From the NCBI GenBank assembly GCA_965203535.1, contig OZ241897.1, positions 452,790 through 516,789 on the forward strand: a DNA stretch of 64,000 bases, written 5' to 3'. This document shows, one piece after another, positions 150 through 60,790 of the stretch. A model generated the notes under the pieces. That model did no database searches. It saw only the letters and a program-made list of their open reading frames with translations, and was not told the origin of the DNA. The position numbers were made by a program, and so were the translations under genes. Source of the stretch: Acidobacteriota bacterium (GTDB lineage: Bacteria > Acidobacteriota > UBA6911 > RPQK01 > JAJDTT01). Each line of letters opens with the position of its first letter. The stretch's first letter is position 1.

Positions 150-345
150 ACGCAGGGGCACCCCTTGTGGGTGCCCGCCGTCGCCCCTCACTGCCCGGTC
201 CGGGGAGGGAAACCACAACGGTCAGCGAGGGCACAAGGTCCGGGGAGGGCGACCACAAGGGTCAGGGAGGGCGACCACAAGGGTCGCCCCTACTTTCCTC
301 TTTCTTTCCCGTTGCACTTTCCTCTTTCTTTCCCGTTACACTGGC
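150..345. repeat. Cluster of REP-like palindromic units (stem GGGCGACC / loop ACAAGG / stem GGTCGCCC, often followed by CTAC) in both orientations, plus two tandem copies of a 24-nt T/C-rich direct repeat (CTTTCCTCTTTCTTTCCCGTTRCA).
   Basis: Read directly. ggggcaccccttgtgggtgccc lies at ~154-176. Degenerate tandem gggagggcgaccacaagggtc units lie at ~204-290, ending in the perfect palindrome gggcgaccacaagggtcgccc. The direct repeat tttcctctttctttcccgtt(g/a)cac occurs twice at ~295-341. Short track ORFs here (37..396 etc.) are translations of the repeat. Confidence 0.75.
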
Positions 346-36964: not shown

Positions 36965-37040
36965 TGGTAGCCCCAACGGGAGTCGAACCCGTGTTACCGC
37001 CTTGAGAGGGCGGCGTCCTAGGCCACTAGACGATGGGGCC
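36965..37040 (-). tRNA. tRNA-Glu (anticodon CUC)
   Basis: The reverse complement reads GGCCCCATCGTCTAGTGGCCTAGGACGCCGCCCTCTCAAGGCGGTAACACGGGTTCGACTCCCGTTGGGGCTACCA. It has a cloverleaf with 7-bp acceptor stem, anticodon stem CCGCC/GGCGG and loop CU-CUC-AA, T-loop GGTTCGA and encoded CCA. It closely resembles bacterial tRNA-Glu. Confidence 0.9.
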
Positions 37041-37139
37041 ACCTGACGATCAAGAATTTTCTATCCAAACCGGGCGGAGTTGTCAATCCCGGAGACGGCT
37101 CCCGGACCGGTCGGAAAGTAGCGACGCGCCGCTCTCGTG

Positions 37140-38750
37140 TCAGGCCCTCAAGCTCTCGACCAGACGCGCCTCGATCTTGGGATCGATGATCGCCGTTTCC
37201 GCCAGCAGCTTGAGGAAACGGCCCTTGTCCACTGCCGTTTTGACGGCCTTGGGTTCGCCCGGAAACACGATCTCCATCCCGCCTCGCCCGACCTCCAGAC
37301 GATAACCTCCCTGCCCCAATCTCAGCCGGGTTTCAATACAGTCCCATCCTTGAGACCGCGCCAACTCCAGGGCAGCCGAGTGCTGTCGAGCATTCCAACC
37401 CTCGAGAAACCATTCGGCAAGCGGTTTCGGGCGTTCCGGCGCTGGTCCCAGGTCGAAGCCGCTGGCGGACATCCGGTGGCTCATGGCAGCCATGCGGTGG
37501 GAAACGGCCCGGGAGGCTTCCGGTCCACCCCGCAGGGAAAGGGGCAACGACAGCCATCCGGAACGGGCGCCGAACAGGACGGCGGCTGCCAGCCAGTCTT
37601 CATCCCTCAGTTCGGGCGCCTGGAACTCCAGCAGCTCGGCACAGGTGCGTCGAAGGAACAGCAGCGACATCGCCCGAGGCAGCGGGGTCGAGTACTTCTT
37701 CCACAGGTCCGACACTCGGAACCGTCCCAATCCGGTCAGGGACTCGAGGTCGTCCCGGAGACTCCGGACGCGCTCCCGCAACGGGGATGACACGCGCGTC
37801 GAGGCGGCGCCGAGGTAATCGGGCAATACACCGGCCGCGTCGTCGCGGTCACCGGAACCCACCTCTTGGACAAGTTGACCGGCGGCGCCCCAGAACAACC
37901 GCCGCCACGCCATCTGGCCGGCAGCATCAGGAAACGGCTCTGAAGCGGACCGCGGCTCGCCACCGGAGCGAATCCAGGCTCCGAGGCCGGCAAGAATAGT
38001 GTCCTCCAGCTCGGACACGGGTTCCCGCACGGGATCGAATGCCACTCGACAGGCAGCGACGCTCAGAGTCTCCCCCGCCGCGGGCATCCGGTTGGCGCTG
38101 CGATTGCCCATCAGCCGGAGCATCGCCATGATGCCGCCGGCGGCCTGAGCGGGGCCCAACGGTGATTCCCGAGCGTCAGGAACTCGTTTCGGAGGCCAGG
38201 GATCCTTGGGGAGATTTGAGAAACGCGGTCTATCGGTTCTGGTGGTGAAGTCCGCCCAGGGCACGTTGGAAAAATCCCGGGCATCGGTCTCGCAGGCCTT
38301 CCGTTCATCCACCGAGCGAAACAGGATCTTCTCGATCGACGATGCGGGAAGCGGCGCCGGCAGGAACAGTAGTTCGGCTTTGCCCAGCCGGTCCGGGAAT
38401 CGACCCACCTGCAGATCTTCCGAGTCGAGAGTCACGACCCGGCCGGAGAACCCGTTCAGAGAGATCCTGACGATGCACGGTTTGAGGTGTCCCGCCTCGG
38501 AGAGGCAGTGATCGATGGCGGCGCTGCCGGGTCTGCCGGTGAACAACGGGATCCAGCCCGGGCAGCAGTCGAGGGTGTCCCGGTAATACTTGTCGCCGAA
38601 TGCGGTGGGCGGCAGCAGGAGGCCCGCGCTCAGCATGTACATCAGATTCAGGTGATTCGTGACCAGATAACCCGCCTTCGGCGCTTCTCGCGGCGTTGAG
38701 GACCGGGCCGATCGAACCATGTCATGCAAAAGAGAACCCTGAGCCGTCAA
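37140..38750 (-). CDS. Hypothetical 536-aa protein, last gene of the DrmA/DrmB-like operon (no recognisable motif; candidate effector or specificity component)
   Basis: Its start overlaps the stop of the upstream SF1 helicase gene (ATGA-type overlap). Composition is not antisense-like. I recognise no catalytic motifs. Confidence 0.65.
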   Translation of the reverse strand: MTAQGSLLHDMVRSARSSTPREAPKAGYLVTNHLNLMYMLSAGLLLPPTAFGDKYYRDTLDCCPGWIPLFTGRPGSAAIDHCLSEAGHLKPCIVRISLNGFSGRVVTLDSEDLQVGRFPDRLGKAELLFLPAPLPASSIEKILFRSVDERKACETDARDFSNVPWADFTTRTDRPRFSNLPKDPWPPKRVPDARESPLGPAQAAGGIMAMLRLMGNRSANRMPAAGETLSVAACRVAFDPVREPVSELEDTILAGLGAWIRSGGEPRSASEPFPDAAGQMAWRRLFWGAAGQLVQEVGSGDRDDAAGVLPDYLGAASTRVSSPLRERVRSLRDDLESLTGLGRFRVSDLWKKYSTPLPRAMSLLFLRRTCAELLEFQAPELRDEDWLAAAVLFGARSGWLSLPLSLRGGPEASRAVSHRMAAMSHRMSASGFDLGPAPERPKPLAEWFLEGWNARQHSAALELARSQGWDCIETRLRLGQGGYRLEVGRGGMEIVFPGEPKAVKTAVDKGRFLKLLAETAIIDPKIEARLVESLRA

Positions 38751-39925
38751 TTGCCCGTCCCCCCTGTCAATACGCTTCGCCGAAGAACCTTGGGGTCTTT
38801 CGGCAGTATCGCTTCGATTCGACTATCGACCCCGGTCTGCCGGAGCAGGATCACCTGCTCCCGCGCCCGGGCCACCATGACGTAAAAGAGCTTCATGGTC
38901 GATTCGCGATCGTCAGGCCGATAGTAGTGGCGGTCGACGTCGGCCAGCACGGCAACGTCGAACTCCAGACCCTTGCAGGCCTGGCAGTTGATGACCAGGA
39001 TCCCGCCTTCATCGAACCGGACGTCGGGACGATGGTTGCCGTGGAAGGTTGCGATGGTCGGAGGATCATGGTCCAAAGCGTCCCCTCCCACGGCACGCAA
39101 TCCATCGAAATAACGCCGGCGGACATCGTTGTTCGGAGCCAGAACGCCGACCAACCTCGTGGGATCGCGATCGACCAGCCGGACAATCCGTCGGCAGATC
39201 TCCGCAAAACGCTCCGGAGGGTATTCGAAGAGCCATGCCGGAACCCCCCGTCGCTTGGGCAGAATCGGTCGGGGGCTGGCAGGGTCGTCGGTGTAGAACG
39301 CGCGCGCCAGCCTCGCCACCGGCGTGCTGTTGCGATAGTTGTACGTCAATTCGACGACGTCTTCCGTGTCGATGTCCAGTTGCGTTTCGATGTCCCTGCG
39401 ACTGCTGTGGGCATCAGTGATCTGCTGATTCTGATCCGCCGCCACGAAGAACCGTTCGAAACCCAGCTTGACCAGCGACCGGTAGAAGTCGGGCGGCATG
39501 TCCTGGCCTTCGTCGATCACCAGGAACGGAGGATCTTTGACCCGGTTCGCCCGACCCACGAGATCCAGGACCGAATCCCAGTCGATGGGTTCAAAACCGC
39601 CAGGACGATCGGCGCCTTTCGTCGGCAGCAGTTGGCGGTTGACTTCCCAGAACTTCCGGCCGAACCACTTGGTCCAAGTGGTGATCGACACCGTCTCGCC
39701 GGCAAGTGCGACGCTCCAACGATGGAGCAGATTGTTGTGGACCAGGAAAACATGAGGGTCACGATCCCGAGCATGGCGCCGGACCCGCATCAGCGCCAAC
39801 ACCGTTTTTCCGGTCCCAGGGCCGCCAACGATCAGGTGTTGGCCCTCCTTGGACAGGGCCCGGGCCGCTTCCTGCTCCTTGCTCAGGTCCTGGATGCCCG
39901 GAAGCTCGAACCGGCGCGTCGCCAT
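38747..39925 (-). CDS. Compact SF1 UvrD/Rep-like helicase-family ATPase (core 1A/2A domains only)
   Basis: Walker A GGPGTGKT, motif II FLVIDEGQDM, motif IV-like LTYNYRNSTPV, motif V/VI CKGLEFDVAVL / VMVARAREQVILL. The ATG at 39925 was verified and is 1 nt after the upstream gene's stop. Confidence 0.8.
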   Translation of the reverse strand: MATRRFELPGIQDLSKEQEAARALSKEGQHLIVGGPGTGKTVLALMRVRRHARDRDPHVFLVHNNLLHRWSVALAGETVSITTWTKWFGRKFWEVNRQLLPTKGADRPGGFEPIDWDSVLDLVGRANRVKDPPFLVIDEGQDMPPDFYRSLVKLGFERFFVAADQNQQITDAHSSRRDIETQLDIDTEDVVELTYNYRNSTPVARLARAFYTDDPASPRPILPKRRGVPAWLFEYPPERFAEICRRIVRLVDRDPTRLVGVLAPNNDVRRRYFDGLRAVGGDALDHDPPTIATFHGNHRPDVRFDEGGILVINCQACKGLEFDVAVLADVDRHYYRPDDRESTMKLFYVMVARAREQVILLRQTGVDSRIEAILPKDPKVLRRSVLTGGTGN

Positions 39926-39926
39926 G

Positions 39927-41807
39927 TCAGCCTCGCTGTTCCGGACGTTCCGCGATGTCGAACAACCCCGGAATGCCGCCGGCGACTTCCGTGACGAAGG
40001 CGCGATCCAGCAGCACGTTGCCGTAGGCGCAACTCGTCTCCGGAACCAGGGCGCAGGCATGGCAGGCGGCACGGTTCAGGAGCCCGGGGCCGTGACCTTC
40101 CTGCCGGGCGCAGACCGGATCCAGCGAGCACCATTCGGCCGCCTCGACCACTGCGCTCAGCAGACGCAGAAAGCGGTGCGGCTCGGCCTGACTCATCAGA
40201 CCGCCCAGCGAACCTTCCGTATCCGGCACGGCGACGTAGATGAGAACCCCTGCCATCGACCCGGAGTCCGCGGCGCCCCCGCTCTGGCAATAGATGCGTT
40301 CCCGTAGCGACGCGGCAGGATATCCGGCCTTGGTCTCCAACTCCCGGATCATCAGGTGGGACAGCGTGTGGAGAGCCAGGAAGCGGGGAGAAACTGCCGG
40401 TGGTCCCATCGGTGAACGGACACCCGACCCCTTGAAGCGGTCGAGAAATATCCGGGTGCGGTTCCGAACCTGCCGGTACGCTTCCCATCGCCTCAGAAAC
40501 GACTCGCGCAAGGTGAAGAAGATCCCTTCTCCGTAGAGTTCCAACGCCGGCAACCATTCGGCTTTCCCGGTGAGGTCCGGCGGTGTCATTCGGCCTTCGA
40601 GCCGCCGGAACCCATCGAGCACCAGGATCTCCTTGAGTCGGTTGACGGCGATCAACCGGTCCACAGCGGCGATCAGCCGGGCGGCGGTTCCCTGCAGCTT
40701 CCCTCCGAGATCGGACCATGCCCGCGTGTGATGCTCGGTGACGAAGTCCTCGTCCTCTTGCAGGTCCGGGATCTCCCCGATCAAGGCCCGGTACTCGCTG
40801 CCGAGCAGGTCTCCATCGCCGACGGATTCCCCGAAGAGCGGGTAGCCACGGTCGATCTCCTTGAGCGCCTCCTCGACTTCATCGACACGGCAACCCCACT
40901 CAACGGCGATTCCCCTGAGAGTCGCCCTTCGCGGCAGGCCGGTTCGTGACTTCCGGATCTCCTCCTGCCTGTCCGTGCTGCTGTAGAGCCGGTCCACCAC
41001 GGTCCCCTTCCGGATACGGGATTCGGGGGGGATGACCAACGCGGTCCGGGTCTCCGGCGAGTGGATGCGAACGTCGTTGATCTCGAGGATCCAGGCCAGT
41101 CCCTCCGGCCTGTTCTCGGGGGGTTTGCGAAGCCACGGCTGCTGCCATTCATGCTCGGAATAGGGAAAGCGTGATTCGATCGGACCGGAGGCACGACATC
41201 TCGTACAAAGAACCCGGTACCCCCGATCGGCAGGCCGGATCGCCAGGTACGGACTCTCCCAATCCGCAAGACACGCTCGTTGGGCCGGGGACCTCGGCTC
41301 CGGGTGCGCCAGAGCATGCCAGGGCACCTCCGCCAGGTAGCCGTGTTCGTGAGCCAGCACCCAGGGGACCTGTTCCAGCTTGCCGCCGCAGACCGGAGCG
41401 TCGCCACCCACCTGGTGACTTGGCCCCGGACCCGAGCAAAAGGACGGGTCGATCTGCACCTCGCCGCGCGTCTCGGTCCGGCCCGTTCGGGCGAGCCGCC
41501 ACGGGCGATGATGCAGCAGGCCGCACCGGGAACACCACGTCCAGCCCGGAAAGCGCAGCGCCGGTATGGGGTGTCCGGAAACCCGGCCGTTGTTCTCCAC
41601 CCGGGCCTTCGGGGGCGTGCGCAGGACCTTGCTGATCTTCAGGGAGCGGCGCACCCGCTCGACGTGGCGAATCCCTTCTTCGTCGCCGCCCTTCCAGAAA
41701 GTCGTGTCCTTCACCGTCACCAGATGATCCGGCCCCCGGACCACTGCGCCCACGGAACAGTGCCGCAACAGGTGTGAGAGCCGCACCGGCAGAGCTTCGT
41801 CAGTCAT
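39927..41807 (-). CDS. DUF1998-domain protein (DrmB-like)
   Basis: C-terminal Cys cluster typical of DUF1998 (NRAACHACALVPETSCAYGN) plus upstream Cys pairs (WCSRCG...CGGK, CTRCRASG). 626 aa, about the size of DISARM DrmB. The start overlaps the stop of the upstream helicase. Confidence 0.75.
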   Translation of the reverse strand: MTDEALPVRLSHLLRHCSVGAVVRGPDHLVTVKDTTFWKGGDEEGIRHVERVRRSLKISKVLRTPPKARVENNGRVSGHPIPALRFPGWTWCSRCGLLHHRPWRLARTGRTETRGEVQIDPSFCSGPGPSHQVGGDAPVCGGKLEQVPWVLAHEHGYLAEVPWHALAHPEPRSPAQRACLADWESPYLAIRPADRGYRVLCTRCRASGPIESRFPYSEHEWQQPWLRKPPENRPEGLAWILEINDVRIHSPETRTALVIPPESRIRKGTVVDRLYSSTDRQEEIRKSRTGLPRRATLRGIAVEWGCRVDEVEEALKEIDRGYPLFGESVGDGDLLGSEYRALIGEIPDLQEDEDFVTEHHTRAWSDLGGKLQGTAARLIAAVDRLIAVNRLKEILVLDGFRRLEGRMTPPDLTGKAEWLPALELYGEGIFFTLRESFLRRWEAYRQVRNRTRIFLDRFKGSGVRSPMGPPAVSPRFLALHTLSHLMIRELETKAGYPAASLRERIYCQSGGAADSGSMAGVLIYVAVPDTEGSLGGLMSQAEPHRFLRLLSAVVEAAEWCSLDPVCARQEGHGPGLLNRAACHACALVPETSCAYGNVLLDRAFVTEVAGGIPGLFDIAERPEQRG

Positions 41808-44800
41808 CGTGTTGCAGCACTCCCGTGTCCTCGACGTTTCGCATGGAGTTCAGCGTCCGCCACAGCCCCCGAGCCGGCGGGTCGTCGAATTGGCGCAACA
41901 GCCCGTCGGCGGCTCGATCCTTCGCCTGGTAGTCCAGCCGGCGTTTCTGCCGCTCGCAACGCCGCGCTTCCTGATGCCACCGTTCGGCAAGCCGGTCGAG
42001 GTGACGGCCTGTGACCTCGCCCCGGGCCTCGTCGGCCTCCCGGCAGCGGCGCTTGAGTCGTCGGATCACGGCCCTCACCCGGTCGTCGTTCGCGTCGAAT
42101 GCGCCGGCGTCCTCGTTCCGAATCAAGGCGTCGCACCCGTGGCGCAGGGCGGTCACCAGGGCGGCATGCAGGGCCCGGGTGCGGACCTGGTAGGTGAACG
42201 GCGTCACGCTGGTCGGCTCCACGAACCGGTAGAAGGACTCGTGGTAGGGACAGAAGTTCTCGTAGTGGGAGAGGCTGCGCGCCTGGTGGCGGTAATAGTT
42301 GGCGAAAACGAGGCCCGGGACGGCGGCGCGGCCGATTCGGCTGCTGGCCTGGACGTACTCGGCGGTGGTGAGCGGCTGGCCGTTGATGACCATCGTCGCC
42401 AGACGGTCCACATCCACGCCCACGGAGATCATGTTCGTGGCCAGCACCGCGTCCACGCAATCCGGCTCGCCCCGGCGGCGATGCAACTGATCGAAGGTAC
42501 GCGCGTTCCGTTGAGGCGATGAGAAGCTGGTGAGCTGGACCACCGACTGCCGCAACTCGGCAGCCCCTCCCGCATCGGTCCGTTCAGGGTCGGCCGTCCA
42601 TTCTCCGTCGGCCTCGGCGCCGTCCCGGACCGCCTGTCTCTGCTCCTGGTCGAGACGCCGCACCAGGTCGCGCACGGAGGTCGCGTAGGCGTTGTGGCTG
42701 TTGCCGACCCCGCGCAGGCTGCCGTGATAGATCACCTGGGTCCACCAGGCATCCAGCAGGTCGTCCCGGTCCGGCTGATCCTGGAACACCGCCAACGGCG
42801 CCTGGAGCAGGGCAGCGGCCAACGGCGCCAGGCAGCGCCGTTGATCCAACGCCGGCGCCAGGTAGCCGACGTAGAGCCGGCCCGGCCTCGAATGATCCGC
42901 CCGTGCGAACCACGAATCGTCGGCCGACAGGCCCGGTGGGGGAAACACGGCGAGCTCTCGCCCGTACAGGCTTCTCACCTGCTCCCGAGCCATGCGGATG
43001 GTCGCCGTCGAGGCGACGTACTTGGGACGCACGCCGCGTTGCTCGAGGACCGTCTCCAACCCCGCCTCGTAGAGGCCGGCCACGGACCCGAGCGGTCCGG
43101 CAATGAGGTGGAGCTCGTCCTGGATCACCAGTTCCGGCGGGCGGCGGGGAAAGCGGCTTCCGGGCGGACGTCTGCCGAGGAAGACCGAAGACCGTTCCTC
43201 CCAGGCCAAGCGGGCGAACTTGTCGATGGTGGCGATCAGGAGCGTCGGCGGGCGTTGATACAAGGACTCGTCAACGACGTTGCAGGGCAACGGGGTCGGC
43301 TCGCCCGATTCGCCATCGGGACCGAACTCGCACTCGGGATTCCGGCACAGGAAGGCAAACGACCGGAGCGTCGCCCGGTAGCTCCCAGGCGCCTCGAACT
43401 CCCGGTTGCACCACGGACACGCTCTCAGCACGAGTTGGTGACCCGCGTCCTCATCGCCCGCCGCCAGTTCCTTCACGCAATCCTCCGCCTGCCGGCAGGT
43501 GTTCGGACTGGCCGCGCGGCCGACCCACATGCCGACGGTGATGGGCTCTTCGCCCAGCCGCTCCGGATCCTGTCGGCGCAACAGCTCAAGGGCGCAGATG
43601 ATGCGGGTCGCGCGCTCGAACTGCTGCCTGGTCAGCAGACGCAGGGTGTAGCGCATCAGAACCACGGTGCCGCCGCCCAAGGTCCCGTGCTGCAAACGCC
43701 GCCACGCGATCAGAAACGCGATCAGTCCCAGGTAAGCTTCCGTCTTGCCGCCGCCCGTGGGAAACCAGATCAGGTCCAGTACGTCGCGGAAGTCGTCCTT
43801 CTCCCGGACGGTCGACTCGATGACGGCCAGCAGAAAGGCGAGCTGGAACGGCCGCCAGCGATACACCCGCGAGTCCTTCCGTTCGCCCTTCTTCCCTTCA
43901 TCCCGGCTGCGATCCTGCTGCCGCATCTGCTCCAACATCGCGCGGTTGGCCTGCCGGAATGCGAACCTCGCTCCGGCATCGGCCCGGAGCAGCGCCACAC
44001 CGCGGCGCATGCGCTTTTGCGCCGTGTCCATCCGCCGGCAGATCCGCGCCGCGGTTTCCCGCTCCACGGTGGTTCCCAATCCTCCGGAACCCCTCCACTG
44101 TTCCTTGATCCATCGCTGGTAGCCATCCACGAAAGCGTCGAGCCGGTCGAGGACCATTTCCCAGGGCGCTGCGGCAAGGTCCTGCAAAACCAGAACGTCT
44201 TCATCCACATCCCGGGCCTGGACCGTCACCAGGGGAACATCCACCTCCGGCATGAATTCGGCCCGGATCCTGGAGGGTCTCCCCGGTTTTACGGACCAGT
44301 CCACGGCCGCCCCGTGGCCCACCGCATAGATGCGCTTGTGCCGATATTGGAGTTCGAGTTCCCGCTCCTCTTCGGTGAGCAGACTGGGGTCCACGCGCGG
44401 GTATTCAGCCAACTCACCATTCAGGATCTCGCATTCCAGACTCGCTTCGAACAGGCAGCGCCCGTCGCGATCCTCTCCGATCCGGGCCGGCTCCCGGCGG
44501 TTGGCGAAGACCACGGTGAGGATGCGGCCGTCTCCGTGCGCCCGCTCGCGCACTTCAAGGAGCACGTCTTCGGGCAGCGCAGGTTCGCCCCCGGGCCATT
44601 CCAGGGCGCATTCAAGGGACTTGCGCCTGTATTCGCGCCTCAGGAATCGTCCTCGAGGATCCCTTTCACCCGTCCGTTCGTAAGTGGCGGCGGAAGCCGT
44701 GATGCGCAGACTCAGGTCGTCGGCCGAGCGAACAAAGAACGAAAAACTGACGGAGGAGGGGGGGACGTAACGCCTTCGCCGAACCGGTTCCGCCAGATTT

Positions 44801-45207
44801 CTCTGGGCGGCCTCACCATCGCCGACAGGCGTCTCGTGCTCCTCGTCGTCCTCCGGAATCGCAGGATCGAGGCCCGAGTATCCCGGTTCCACGGGGTGCA
44901 GAACGCCAGTGGGATACCGCTCGAGAGGCGACCCCTGCAGACGGCCGCGATGTGCCGGACCGATCAACTGGAGACGCACCCAGTCCACCAGGCGTTTCCG
45001 ATGCACCGCCCAAGGACTCTTCGATAAACCACTGTTGCTTGAAATCACTGACCTTGCGGTTGGCGGCTGCAAATCGCGGCGCCATGATTCCGGTGCTGGT
45101 CGGCCGGTGGCCGGTGGTTCGGGCAAAGTAGGACTCGGGACCATCGGCTGCCCCGAACCAGTGAGTCGGCGGTTGGAGAATCGCGCTTCCGAAGAGGGCG
45201 CCCACAA
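41800..45207 (-). CDS. DrmA-like SF2 (DExH) helicase with a long N-terminal domain and a zinc-ribbon insertion
   Basis: Walker A FPTGGGKTEAYLG, motif II VIQDELHLIAG, inserted Cys4 ribbon CPWCN...CRNPEC, motif VI-like QASSRIGR. A ~480-aa N-terminal region precedes the ATPase core. The track start is a TTG lying inside the REP palindrome. The true start is more likely the in-frame ATG about 21 codons downstream (MVPSPTLPEPP). Coordinates here may be +-1-2 nt. Confidence 0.8.
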   Translation of the reverse strand: MWAPSSEARFSNRRLTGSGQPMVPSPTLPEPPATGRPAPESWRRDLQPPTARSVISSNSGLSKSPWAVHRKRLVDWVRLQLIGPAHRGRLQGSPLERYPTGVLHPVEPGYSGLDPAIPEDDEEHETPVGDGEAAQRNLAEPVRRRRYVPPSSVSFSFFVRSADDLSLRITASAATYERTGERDPRGRFLRREYRRKSLECALEWPGGEPALPEDVLLEVRERAHGDGRILTVVFANRREPARIGEDRDGRCLFEASLECEILNGELAEYPRVDPSLLTEEERELELQYRHKRIYAVGHGAAVDWSVKPGRPSRIRAEFMPEVDVPLVTVQARDVDEDVLVLQDLAAAPWEMVLDRLDAFVDGYQRWIKEQWRGSGGLGTTVERETAARICRRMDTAQKRMRRGVALLRADAGARFAFRQANRAMLEQMRQQDRSRDEGKKGERKDSRVYRWRPFQLAFLLAVIESTVREKDDFRDVLDLIWFPTGGGKTEAYLGLIAFLIAWRRLQHGTLGGGTVVLMRYTLRLLTRQQFERATRIICALELLRRQDPERLGEEPITVGMWVGRAASPNTCRQAEDCVKELAAGDEDAGHQLVLRACPWCNREFEAPGSYRATLRSFAFLCRNPECEFGPDGESGEPTPLPCNVVDESLYQRPPTLLIATIDKFARLAWEERSSVFLGRRPPGSRFPRRPPELVIQDELHLIAGPLGSVAGLYEAGLETVLEQRGVRPKYVASTATIRMAREQVRSLYGRELAVFPPPGLSADDSWFARADHSRPGRLYVGYLAPALDQRRCLAPLAAALLQAPLAVFQDQPDRDDLLDAWWTQVIYHGSLRGVGNSHNAYATSVRDLVRRLDQEQRQAVRDGAEADGEWTADPERTDAGGAAELRQSVVQLTSFSSPQRNARTFDQLHRRRGEPDCVDAVLATNMISVGVDVDRLATMVINGQPLTTAEYVQASSRIGRAAVPGLVFANYYRHQARSLSHYENFCPYHESFYRFVEPTSVTPFTYQVRTRALHAALVTALRHGCDALIRNEDAGAFDANDDRVRAVIRRLKRRCREADEARGEVTGRHLDRLAERWHQEARRCERQKRRLDYQAKDRAADGLLRQFDDPPARGLWRTLNSMRNVEDTGVLQHDD

Positions 45208-45222
45208 GGGGCGCCCCTACCC
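45190..45222. repeat. REP-like palindromic element copy (gagggcgcccacaaggggcgcccctacc)
   Basis: Perfect 8-bp stems around the ACAAGG loop. Lies between the helicase 5' end and the 3' end of the CMD gene. Confidence 0.8.
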
Positions 45223-45264: not shown

Positions 45265-45600
45265 CTAATCGAAGTGCTTCAGCTGCAAGCGCTCCGCGGC
45301 GTGGTCCGTCTGATCTACGACGGAGGCCGCGGCGACGCCCATGGCAATGGAAATGGTCTCGCTGATCTCCTCCCGGGTGGCGCCGTACTTGAGCGCCTTC
45401 CGGAGATGACCGTCCAGGCAACCCTCGCACTTGAATCCCAGGGACGCGGCGATGGCGATCAACTCCTTCTGCTTGCGGTCGATGGGAGAAGACTTGTAGG
45501 TCTCCTGGTAGAACTTGAAGTAGATCTTCCGCATCCGGGGCTCGACCATACTGTAGGAAGGCCATTTTCCCCGATTCTCCGGGGTCTTCTTCTCTGCCAT
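45265..45600 (-). CDS. Carboxymuconolactone decarboxylase (AhpD-like) family protein
   Basis: CMD-family CxxC/H region (FKCEGCLDGHL). Start placed at MAEKK (ATG at 45600, verified). The track ORF extends to 45792. Confidence 0.7.
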   Translation of the reverse strand: MAEKKTPENRGKWPSYSMVEPRMRKIYFKFYQETYKSSPIDRKQKELIAIAASLGFKCEGCLDGHLRKALKYGATREEISETISIAMGVAAASVVDQTDHAAERLQLKHFD

Positions 45601-60685: not shown

Positions 60686-60790
60686 GACACGTAGGGGCGC
60701 CCGACGCGTCGGGCCACCTGTCGCAACAGGCGCAGCTTCGAATAAAACACGTAGGGGCGCCCCTTGTGGGCGCCCTCTTCCGCCCTTGCA
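60676..60790. repeat. Tandem duplication (~60-nt unit) of a REP-like element in inverted orientation (cttcRaataaRacacgtaggggcgccc...)
   Basis: Unit 1 carries the variant palindrome gcccgacgcgtcgggc. Unit 2 carries the canonical gtaggggcgccccttgtgggcgccc. The duplication is visible as the repeated peptide ASNKTRRGA in the track ORF 60666..62138. Confidence 0.8.

Follow-up and report, generated by a model that had tools for sequence, protein, structure and literature searches.

Four tightly coupled genes on the minus strand make up the cassette described here, which lies in a 64,000-nucleotide stretch (the window) of contig OZ241897.1 (positions 452,790 to 516,789, assembly GCA_965203535.1) from an Acidobacteriota bacterium. 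In the direction of transcription they encode a helicase related to DrmA of the DISARM defence system, a DrmB-family protein, a small helicase of superfamily 1 (the SF1 gene) and a 536-residue protein that we call X (Table 1). The DrmA and DrmB open reading frames (ORFs) overlap by 8 nt, a single nucleotide separates the DrmB stop codon from the ATG of the SF1 gene at 39925, and the SF1 and X genes overlap by 4 nt (TTGA). Starting at this ATG, the SF1 protein has 392 residues, matching the homologue called in a related locus (L001). On its 3' side the cassette is bounded by a tRNA-Glu gene, placed by ARAGORN, and on the other side by a palindrome. The coupling and both boundaries had been described in an initial annotation of the window, and the coordinates bear them out. 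The palindrome, GGGCGCCC-N5-GGGCGCCC, is GC-rich with a loop of ACAAG/CTTGT (ACAAG in the copy beside the cassette) and is present four times in the window (156-176, 269-289, 45196-45216 and 60755-60775) against 0.33 copies expected, for which reason we call it REP-like (repetitive extragenic palindromic); it looks like an intergenic element of the source genome. Because this palindrome falls inside the 5' extension of the maximal DrmA ORF, translation of DrmA probably begins further downstream, at about 45048 (GTG) to 45144 (ATG). The DrmA homologue in L001 was called at 1082 residues.

The first two genes are those of a DISARM core. The DrmA translation carries the Walker A motif PTGGGKTEAY, the DELH box and the cysteine cluster CPWC...CRNPEC, all read in the initial annotation, and matches PADLOC DrmA (E = 1.3e-195), Helicase_C (pfam00271, 5e-6) as expected of drmA, and NCBIfam DISARM_DrmAS (E = 7e-251, 835.7 bits). 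The last score lies below the curated equivalog cut-off of 950 bits, and we regard the protein for that reason as a relative rather than a canonical orthologue; these matches assign it to the superfamily 2 (SF2) helicases of the YprA family, in the DISARM branch. DrmB, for which a DUF1998 assignment and a C-terminal CHAC...SC cluster had been proposed, has the motifs WCSLDPVC...CHAC...SC and scores 302 bits (cut-off 240) against NF038324 DrmB_fam over residues 8-607; it also matches PADLOC DrmB (2.6e-51) and Pfam MZB/DUF1998 (PF09369, E = 1.4e-7). It is accordingly classed as an OB-CON-DUF1998/MZB zinc module, encoded, as is drmB in DISARM, by a gene adjacent to and separate from that of the helicase. 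A helicase and a DUF1998 protein encoded apart in this way mark the DISARM branch of the YprA helicases (PMC12458937). Judged by sequence, DrmA, as the SF2 motor, and DrmB are a split YprA-type helicase forming the DISARM core.

The SF1 protein matches UvrD_C_2 (3e-9) and AAA_19 in Pfam and keeps all helicase motifs intact (GGPGTGKT, DEGQD, NYRNS and KGLEFD) in its 392 residues, in agreement with the minimal UvrD-like helicase first suggested. Matches to GajB and 'NERD+UvrD' in PADLOC were weak or partial, and those to HelD/HelR in NCBIfam were weak. Its AlphaFold2 (AF2) model has a pLDDT of 64, with the N-terminal half below 50; of its Foldseek matches we rely only on those of the confident C-terminal half, the best being the C-terminal domain of HelD (TMt 0.80), followed by UvrD/PcrA/Rep. 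We detected 1741 homologues of about 390 residues. The protein is best classed as a minimal UvrD/HelD-like SF1A ATPase/helicase with a 1A/2A core and no recognised accessory domain.

Protein X, whose gene is the hallmark of the cassette, belongs to a large family without annotation. True to its first description as lacking any recognisable motif, the window protein gave no match in Pfam, PADLOC or NCBIfam. At least 669 homologues were found in 90%-identity clusters, and the family comprises 602 clusters at 50% identity (E<=1e-3), nearly all of about 520 residues. The AF2 model of X (pLDDT 80.4, pTM 0.83) divides into three parts, and the top eight Foldseek matches of the model are all DarT structures. 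According to the model, the N-terminal domain has a DarT-type ADP-ribosyltransferase (ART) fold, and the central domain has the all-alpha fold of ADP-ribosylglycohydrolases (ARH/DraG); conserved residues of the C-terminal region are W469, T474, G481 and G498. In a Pfam scan of 88 family members, 20 matched the ART family 2CompART (best 1.4e-5), other families matched one member each and none matched an ARH family. Profiles built from 24 and 95 sequences retrieved only spurious helical designs from the PDB chains, and no solved DarT or ARH; the ART/ARH assignment therefore draws on the fold and on the weak Pfam matches. A literature search on 2CompART returned unrelated papers only.

The four genes travel together. 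One genome per GTDB species was scanned for X (185,579 species representatives), which gave loci in 123 species, of which 80 loci, all from metagenome-assembled genomes, were kept. These are labelled Acidobacteriota, Gammaproteobacteria, Alphaproteobacteria, Chloroflexota, Binatia, Verrucomicrobiae, Latescibacterota and Syntrophobacterales, about ten lineages in all; the Acidobacteriota loci come from an unnamed or Aminicenantes-labelled clade that includes the window, from Vicinamibacterales and from Bryobacterales. When the four window proteins were used as tBLASTn queries, DrmA-DrmB-SF1-X was found in the same order and on the same strand in 76 of 78 informative loci, the other two of the 80 being truncated contigs. 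The exceptions are L038, which has no DrmAB and a frameshifted SF1 gene, and L054, without DrmA within 10 kb. Identity to the window proteins is 52-93% for DrmA, 48-89% for DrmB, 48-82% for SF1 and 38-75% for X, and divergent X homologues (about 22-30% identity) still sit in the same cassette. All-vs-all clustering of the flank ORFs revealed no other universal neighbour, and the largest flank clusters are lineage-specific. Thus the SF1 and X genes do not behave as independent housekeeping genes, and homologous sets in the 80 loci recur as these four genes only, in heterogeneous flanks and without a routine methyltransferase or phospholipase D (PLD) gene. As the cassette has been seen in uncultured lineages of soil and sediment alone, defence screens based on isolates would not have met it.

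Table 1. Features of the cassette, its surroundings and its NERD-kinase variants. Positions are those of the window unless a locus is named.
Feature	Position	Strand	Remarks
DrmA-like gene	41800-45207	-	Maximal ORF, 1135 aa at most
DrmB-family gene	39927-41807	-	626 aa
SF1 gene	38747-39925	-	ATG 39925, 392 aa; full ORF 38747-40072
Protein X gene	37140-38750	-	536 aa
X residues about 24-175	38226-38681	-	DarT-like ADP-ribosyltransferase-fold domain (model); best-conserved part of the family
X residues about 196-470	37341-38165	-	All-alpha; resembles ADP-ribosylglycohydrolases (ARH3/DraG fold)
X residues 471-536	37143-37340	-	Small beta-sheet and two helices (AF2 secondary structure)
tRNA-Glu(CTC)	36965-37040	-	ARAGORN; 3' boundary of the cassette, flank and not component
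REP-like palindrome	45196-45216		Between the CMD gene and DrmA; boundary, not component
CMD/AhpD-like small protein	45268-45600	-	CxxC motif (CEGC); upstream of DrmA
Secreted paralogue, 499 aa	35374-36873	-	No Pfam match
Secreted paralogue, about 553-624 aa	33620-35494	-	No Pfam match
NERD-kinase locus	L079 1373-7006
NERD-kinase locus	L082 1500-6989
NERD-kinase locus	L081
NERD-kinase locus	L080
NERD-kinase locus	L084
NERD-kinase locus	L025 154-2295
NERD-kinase locus	L026 552-2705

The remaining DISARM genes, which the initial annotation had failed to see at the locus or in its flanks, were absent here too. Apart from the cassette, the window holds 41 predicted ORFs, which are housekeeping genes (among others aconitase, IspG, LeuA-like, HPPK, LptD, signal peptidase, a two-component system, glycosyltransferases), and none of them matched DrmC, DrmM, DrmD or DrmE in PADLOC. 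Weak PADLOC matches among them to mad3 (5e-28), AriA, PDC-M43B, mad8 and SduA probably reflect generic ATPase or regulator similarity. No methylase or Snf2 protein is among the 25 Pfam families listed for the window. Among 141 dereplicated flank proteins of the 80 loci, the top 25 families listed contain no recurrent PLD and no methylase family.

Two genes downstream of the cassette had been read as glycosidase-like; they in fact encode secreted paralogues with 26% identity to each other (499 and 553 residues). Their family is widespread in metagenomes, where a scan with the 499-residue protein gave 153 loci, all at 52% identity or less and none near a cassette. As neighbours of the cassette the pair is confined to the window's clade, and it was rejected as extra components. 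The CMD gene upstream is co-directional with DrmA, with the REP-like hairpin lying between them; it is conserved only in the window's clade and was likewise rejected as a component.

The cassette shows both vertical and horizontal inheritance. In the window's clade it occupies a fixed site, in the order lptD, CMD gene, cassette, tRNA-Glu and the two secreted paralogues, with tRNA-Glu following X only in the eight closest Acidobacteriota loci. In Vicinamibacterales it lies next to ligA, which encodes the NAD-dependent DNA ligase, in 13 loci. These fixed sites indicate vertical inheritance within lineages. The neighbour-joining trees of DrmA and of X match one another but disagree with taxonomy: Alpha- and Gammaproteobacteria are intermixed, Vicinamibacterales fall into two distant clades, and Bryobacterales, although Acidobacteriota, group with Chloroflexota and are farther from the window than Proteobacteria are. 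The cassettes of L081 (Bryobacterales) and L082 (Latescibacterota) are nearly identical, which indicates a very recent transfer or a binning error, and two near-identical copies (L025 and L026) are found on one chromosome (OZ251506.1). The congruence of the two trees, their mismatch with taxonomy and the two-copy genome argue that the cassette moves horizontally as a whole module. The four genes are thus inherited and transferred as one unit across phyla.

A further gene was observed in Vicinamibacterales, encoding a 213-residue protein (L022 1546-2193 and 12 other loci) that is 88-97% conserved and has no Pfam or PADLOC match. In every case its gene immediately precedes DrmA in the same orientation, with ligA downstream of X.

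Some cassettes carry additional modules. In 27 loci, which comprise all the proteobacterial cassettes, a gene for a 548-residue NERD+SF1 protein lies directly downstream of X (L062 11599-13245 and 26 others); its product matches PADLOC RTasNERD-Hel, the DRT-associated NERD-helicase, at 3e-29, and the gene is missing from the window. In seven loci (Bryobacterales, Latescibacterota and some Vicinamibacterales; Table 1) a NERD domain with one or two Ser/Thr-kinase domains, similar to PglW, MkoA and PD-T4-6, is joined to the N-terminus of DrmA or encoded by a gene immediately before it. Among the neighbours of single loci are Wadjet JetABC, Cas_NE0113, SIR2-HerA, PsyrT, DpdF, AbiEii and PIN genes, as well as IS110 transposases, a TrwC relaxase and an AbiEi insertion. 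Such NERD and kinase add-ons and defence-type neighbours are typical of conflict systems. Separately, a small ORF pair was seen between DrmA and DrmB in three gammaproteobacterial loci (L062 6073-6893, L053 and L073); by eye the two look like a DUF433-type antitoxin and a PIN/DUF5615-like toxin.

We next compared the residues of X with those of DarT. The register was set by motifs, using the Thermus DarT sequence and not a three-dimensional superposition, and is indicative only, the hidden Markov model (HMM) score being ~3 bits. Three motifs align without gaps. The first pairs Y-H-I-T-H-I-D-N-L...G of DarT with Y28-L-V-T31-N-H-L-N35-L...G43 of X; the second pairs Y-V-P-F-Y-F with W66-I-P-L-F70; and the third pairs K-Q-E160-A-F-L-V...F-P-W-x-L-I-x-x-I-x-V with K124-A-E126-L-L-F-L...L-P135-x-x-[LW]-I-x-x-I-x-F144, such that DarT K158 (of K158-Q-E160-AFLV) aligns with X K124. 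The X-domain HMM picks the same register for the third motif. An alignment of 95 sequences, with a median identity of 33% to the window protein, places the residues best conserved over the entire length of X in the DarT-like domain: T31, N32, N35, G43, G50, K54, Y55/56, D58, G65-F70, E85, P133-P135 and N162. Of these, T31, N32, N35, G43, K54, Y55/56, D58 and W66-F70 lie in blocks that align, by sequence only, to the strand-1/helix-1 motif, the NAD-binding loop and strand 2 of DarT.

The catalytic residues of H-Y-E-class DarT, His and Glu, are not kept across these 95 sequences. The position aligned with the NAD-ribose His, which is H17 in DarT1 (PMC11543638), is Leu in 56, Phe in 15 and Met in 9, and a His anywhere in residues 27-31 is found in only six. 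The position aligned with the catalytic Glu (E160/E152) is variable (Ser, Glu, Arg, Ala and others), with Asp or Glu at residue 125 or 126 in 57 of the 95 and Glu in 29; the window protein has E126. In the ARH-like domain two acidic positions are kept, D385 (90/95) and 383 (64/95), together with conserved Arg residues, and no further conserved acidic or Thr ligand of a binuclear Mg site was found in the 95 sequences. X thus derives from an ART and ARH pair, as a non-canonical enzyme or, more likely, a pseudoenzyme that keeps a binding pocket. The lost His and the unconserved Glu favour a sensor or adaptor, or a non-canonical enzyme, over a DarT-type toxin.

From these results we favour, with a probability of roughly 0.6, the view that this self-contained operon is a distinct DISARM-related system without methyltransferase or PLD, most likely serving anti-phage or anti-plasmid defence. 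The initial annotation had proposed just such a variant DrmAB-based system, and the DUF1998 match of DrmB, the lack of a recurrent methylase or PLD among the flank families listed for the homologous sets and the constant company of the SF1 and X genes with DrmAB all support it. The cassette is probably an undescribed immune system. We infer the defence role from context, and likewise sensing by DrmAB, an interaction of X with single-stranded DNA (ssDNA) and any catalysis.

How the putative defence system might work is suggested by Serratia DrmAB, in which a trigger loop keeps the complex inactive and ssDNA with a 5' overhang activates it (PMC9142583). By analogy, DrmAB of the cassette would be autoinhibited and would load on ssDNA or on 5'-overhang structures of injected or replicating foreign DNA. 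It would then be the structure of foreign DNA, and not an absence of methylation, that is recognised, and a methylase would for that reason be dispensable. ATP-driven translocation, aided by the SF1 motor, would expose or track ssDNA, to which X could be recruited via its DarT-derived domain or groove. X would more likely be a sensor or adaptor that binds a ligand or ssDNA, or else a non-canonical enzyme, than a classical DarT-type toxin, and would stall or mark replication of the invader. In many lineages the killing step might be reinforced by the NERD nuclease-helicase or NERD-kinase module.

Several observations weigh against a defence system. DrmA scores below the NCBIfam cut-off, none of the four core genes has a recognisable nuclease or any other killing activity, and both putative active sites of X are eroded, as seen in the aligned His and Glu positions and the missing Mg ligands. 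Only a minority of flanking genes have a PADLOC match, and neither the PLSDB plasmids nor the INPHARED phages yielded a relative of X. In the window and its eight closest relatives the cassette holds a conserved position among housekeeping genes (lptD, folK, signal peptidase), and the ligA synteny of Vicinamibacterales is more in keeping with a stable chromosomal role than with a mobile island. The locus had been called a compact island, of which the gene coupling stands; the base composition has no island signature, with no GC anomaly at the cassette. No att-like direct repeats were found at tRNA-Glu and no integrase at the window cassette. With the tRNA adjacency being lineage-specific as well, we rejected integration of a tRNA-targeted island.

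The main rival to defence, which we consider unlikely, is a housekeeping role in DNA repair or replication rescue like that of MrfAB/YprA, in which the helicases would clear or expose lesions and X would recognise a bulky base adduct, for instance ADP-ribosylated DNA, via its DarT-derived domain and perhaps process it via the ARH-derived one. A repair branch exists within the YprA family (PMC12458937; PMC7797055), DNA ADP-ribosylation is written and erased by ART and ARH folds, and the stable synteny in two Acidobacteriota lineages, with the adjacency to ligA, the absence of X from the plasmid and phage collections and the lack of a self/non-self module would all suit such a role. The split of helicase and DUF1998 into separate genes, however, is the signature of the DISARM, and hence defence, branch (PMC12458937). 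The cassette is also rare and patchy (123 species), with a phylogeny at odds with taxonomy and one two-copy genome; variants carry NERD-helicase or PglW-like NERD-kinase modules, some copies lie beside Wadjet, Cas, SIR2-HerA or toxin-antitoxin genes, and the ARH metal ligands are largely lost.

A mechanistic sub-variant, to which we give the same low standing, would make X a fully active DarT-type DNA ADP-ribosyltransferase toxin with its ARH domain as a cis 'antitoxin'. The helicases would deliver ssDNA, and ADP-ribosylation of phage or host DNA would lead to abortive infection or a replication block. The closest solved fold is indeed DarT, Pfam ART matches exist in the family, E126 of the window protein aligns with DarT E160, and the invariant D58 lies in the loop where DarT1 has its catalytic R52/D54 pair (PMC11543638). 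Set against this are the replacement of the NAD-ribose His by Leu, Phe or Met across the family, a Glu position that is acidic in little more than half of the sequences, an ARH domain without most of its Mg-binding acids, and the lack of any sequence-level match to a solved DarT or ARH.

More doubtful still is a joint claim of methylation-independent immunity in which DrmAB and SF1 would feed ssDNA to a DarT-derived enzyme that modifies DNA with ADP-ribose or another NAD-derived group, with the ARH domain as a brake, and with a non-canonical active site of K54/Y56/D58/E85/N162 in place of H-Y-E. If true, YprA-helicase defence would for the first time be tied to ADP-ribose chemistry, and the ART fold would gain a new catalytic solution. 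A fragmented or decayed canonical DISARM, its missing genes elsewhere or recently lost and SF1 and X merely unrelated neighbours, is effectively excluded: although DrmA and DrmB are unmistakable, and PADLOC-style rules would presumably label the pair 'DISARM_other', the same four-gene order with stop/start coupling recurs across phyla, the X and DrmA trees are congruent, and neither the window nor the families listed for the flanks hold a recurrent methylase or PLD.

The killing step of DISARM is unknown, and methylation accounts for only part of its self/non-self discrimination (PMC9142583; bioRxiv 2021.12.28.474362). The cassette is in effect a natural minimal experiment, pairing the DrmAB core, without methylase or PLD, with one SF1 helicase and one ART/ARH-fold protein. 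If it defends, DrmAB can discriminate invaders without methylation, a defined set of partners becomes available for locating the effector step, and a family comprising over 600 sequence clusters acquires both an assigned fold and a context.

Among known systems the cassette is closest in its core to DISARM classes 1 and 2 (drmA, drmB, drmC with drmMI or drmMII and drmD or drmE), with which it shares an adjacent and co-directional pair of a DrmA-type SF2 helicase and a separate DrmB and, by analogy, probably ssDNA-structure sensing by DrmAB. It differs in having no PLD nuclease, DNA methyltransferase, SNF2 helicase DrmD or DrmE, and in having SF1 and X. Of five gene-content criteria, drmA and drmB are found and three are wanting (the drmC PLD, the N6A and 5mC methylases drmMI/drmMII, and drmD/drmE), and the cassette should therefore not be filed as DISARM class 1 or 2. 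DrmC is itself dispensable and not part of the DISARM core (PMC9142583; bioRxiv 2021.12.28.474362).

ARMADA type II resembles the cassette in combining a YprA-family helicase with a second, UvrD-family SF1 helicase in one operon; it consists of ArmA (BrxHII-like), ArmB (a PglX-like methylase), ArmC (YprA-like) and ArmD (a RelE-GajB-like UvrD helicase) (PMC12458937). ARMADA features an unsplit YprA, a BrxA-like insert, a C-terminal Vsr nuclease, a methylase and an Snf2 helicase (PMC12458937), whereas the cassette has the helicase/DUF1998 split and none of these extras, and ARMADA has no X-like protein. BRIGADE and TALON have unsplit and differently decorated YprA helicases, and the cassette is neither. 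MrfAB/YprA shares the helicase superfamily and the DUF1998 (MZB) zinc module, but MrfA is a fused module with the exonuclease MrfB as partner, whereas the cassette is split and has no exonuclease in the operon. To Gabija GajB and the NERD-UvrD helicases of DRT and further candidate systems the SF1 protein is linked by its partial GajB and 'NERD+UvrD' matches, and the cassette by its optional NERD+SF1 fifth gene; the cassette nevertheless lacks GajA, its SF1 protein is bare at about 390 residues with no nuclease, and the best structural match of the low-confidence SF1 model is HelD/UvrD and not GajB.

X itself shares features with DarTG, in which DarT is paired with a macrodomain or NADAR DarG. 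The predicted DarT fold of the N-terminal domain is accompanied by the shared motifs Y-x-x-T-x-x-x-N-L...G, [YW]-[VI]-P-[FL]-[YF] and P-x-x-[LW]-I-x-x-I-x-[VF], and that domain is paired with a fold that, in other systems, removes ADP-ribose. X differs in not conserving the catalytic His and Glu; its partner domain, fused in cis, is ARH-like rather than a macro or NADAR domain, and the gene sits in a helicase operon and not in a two-gene toxin-antitoxin pair. Our literature search found no description of the cassette or of X, and Bell et al. 2025 (PMC12458937) go no further than to note 'many uncharacterized DISARM-like ... classes'. What is new here is a previously unrecognised signature protein family together with its fold assignment.

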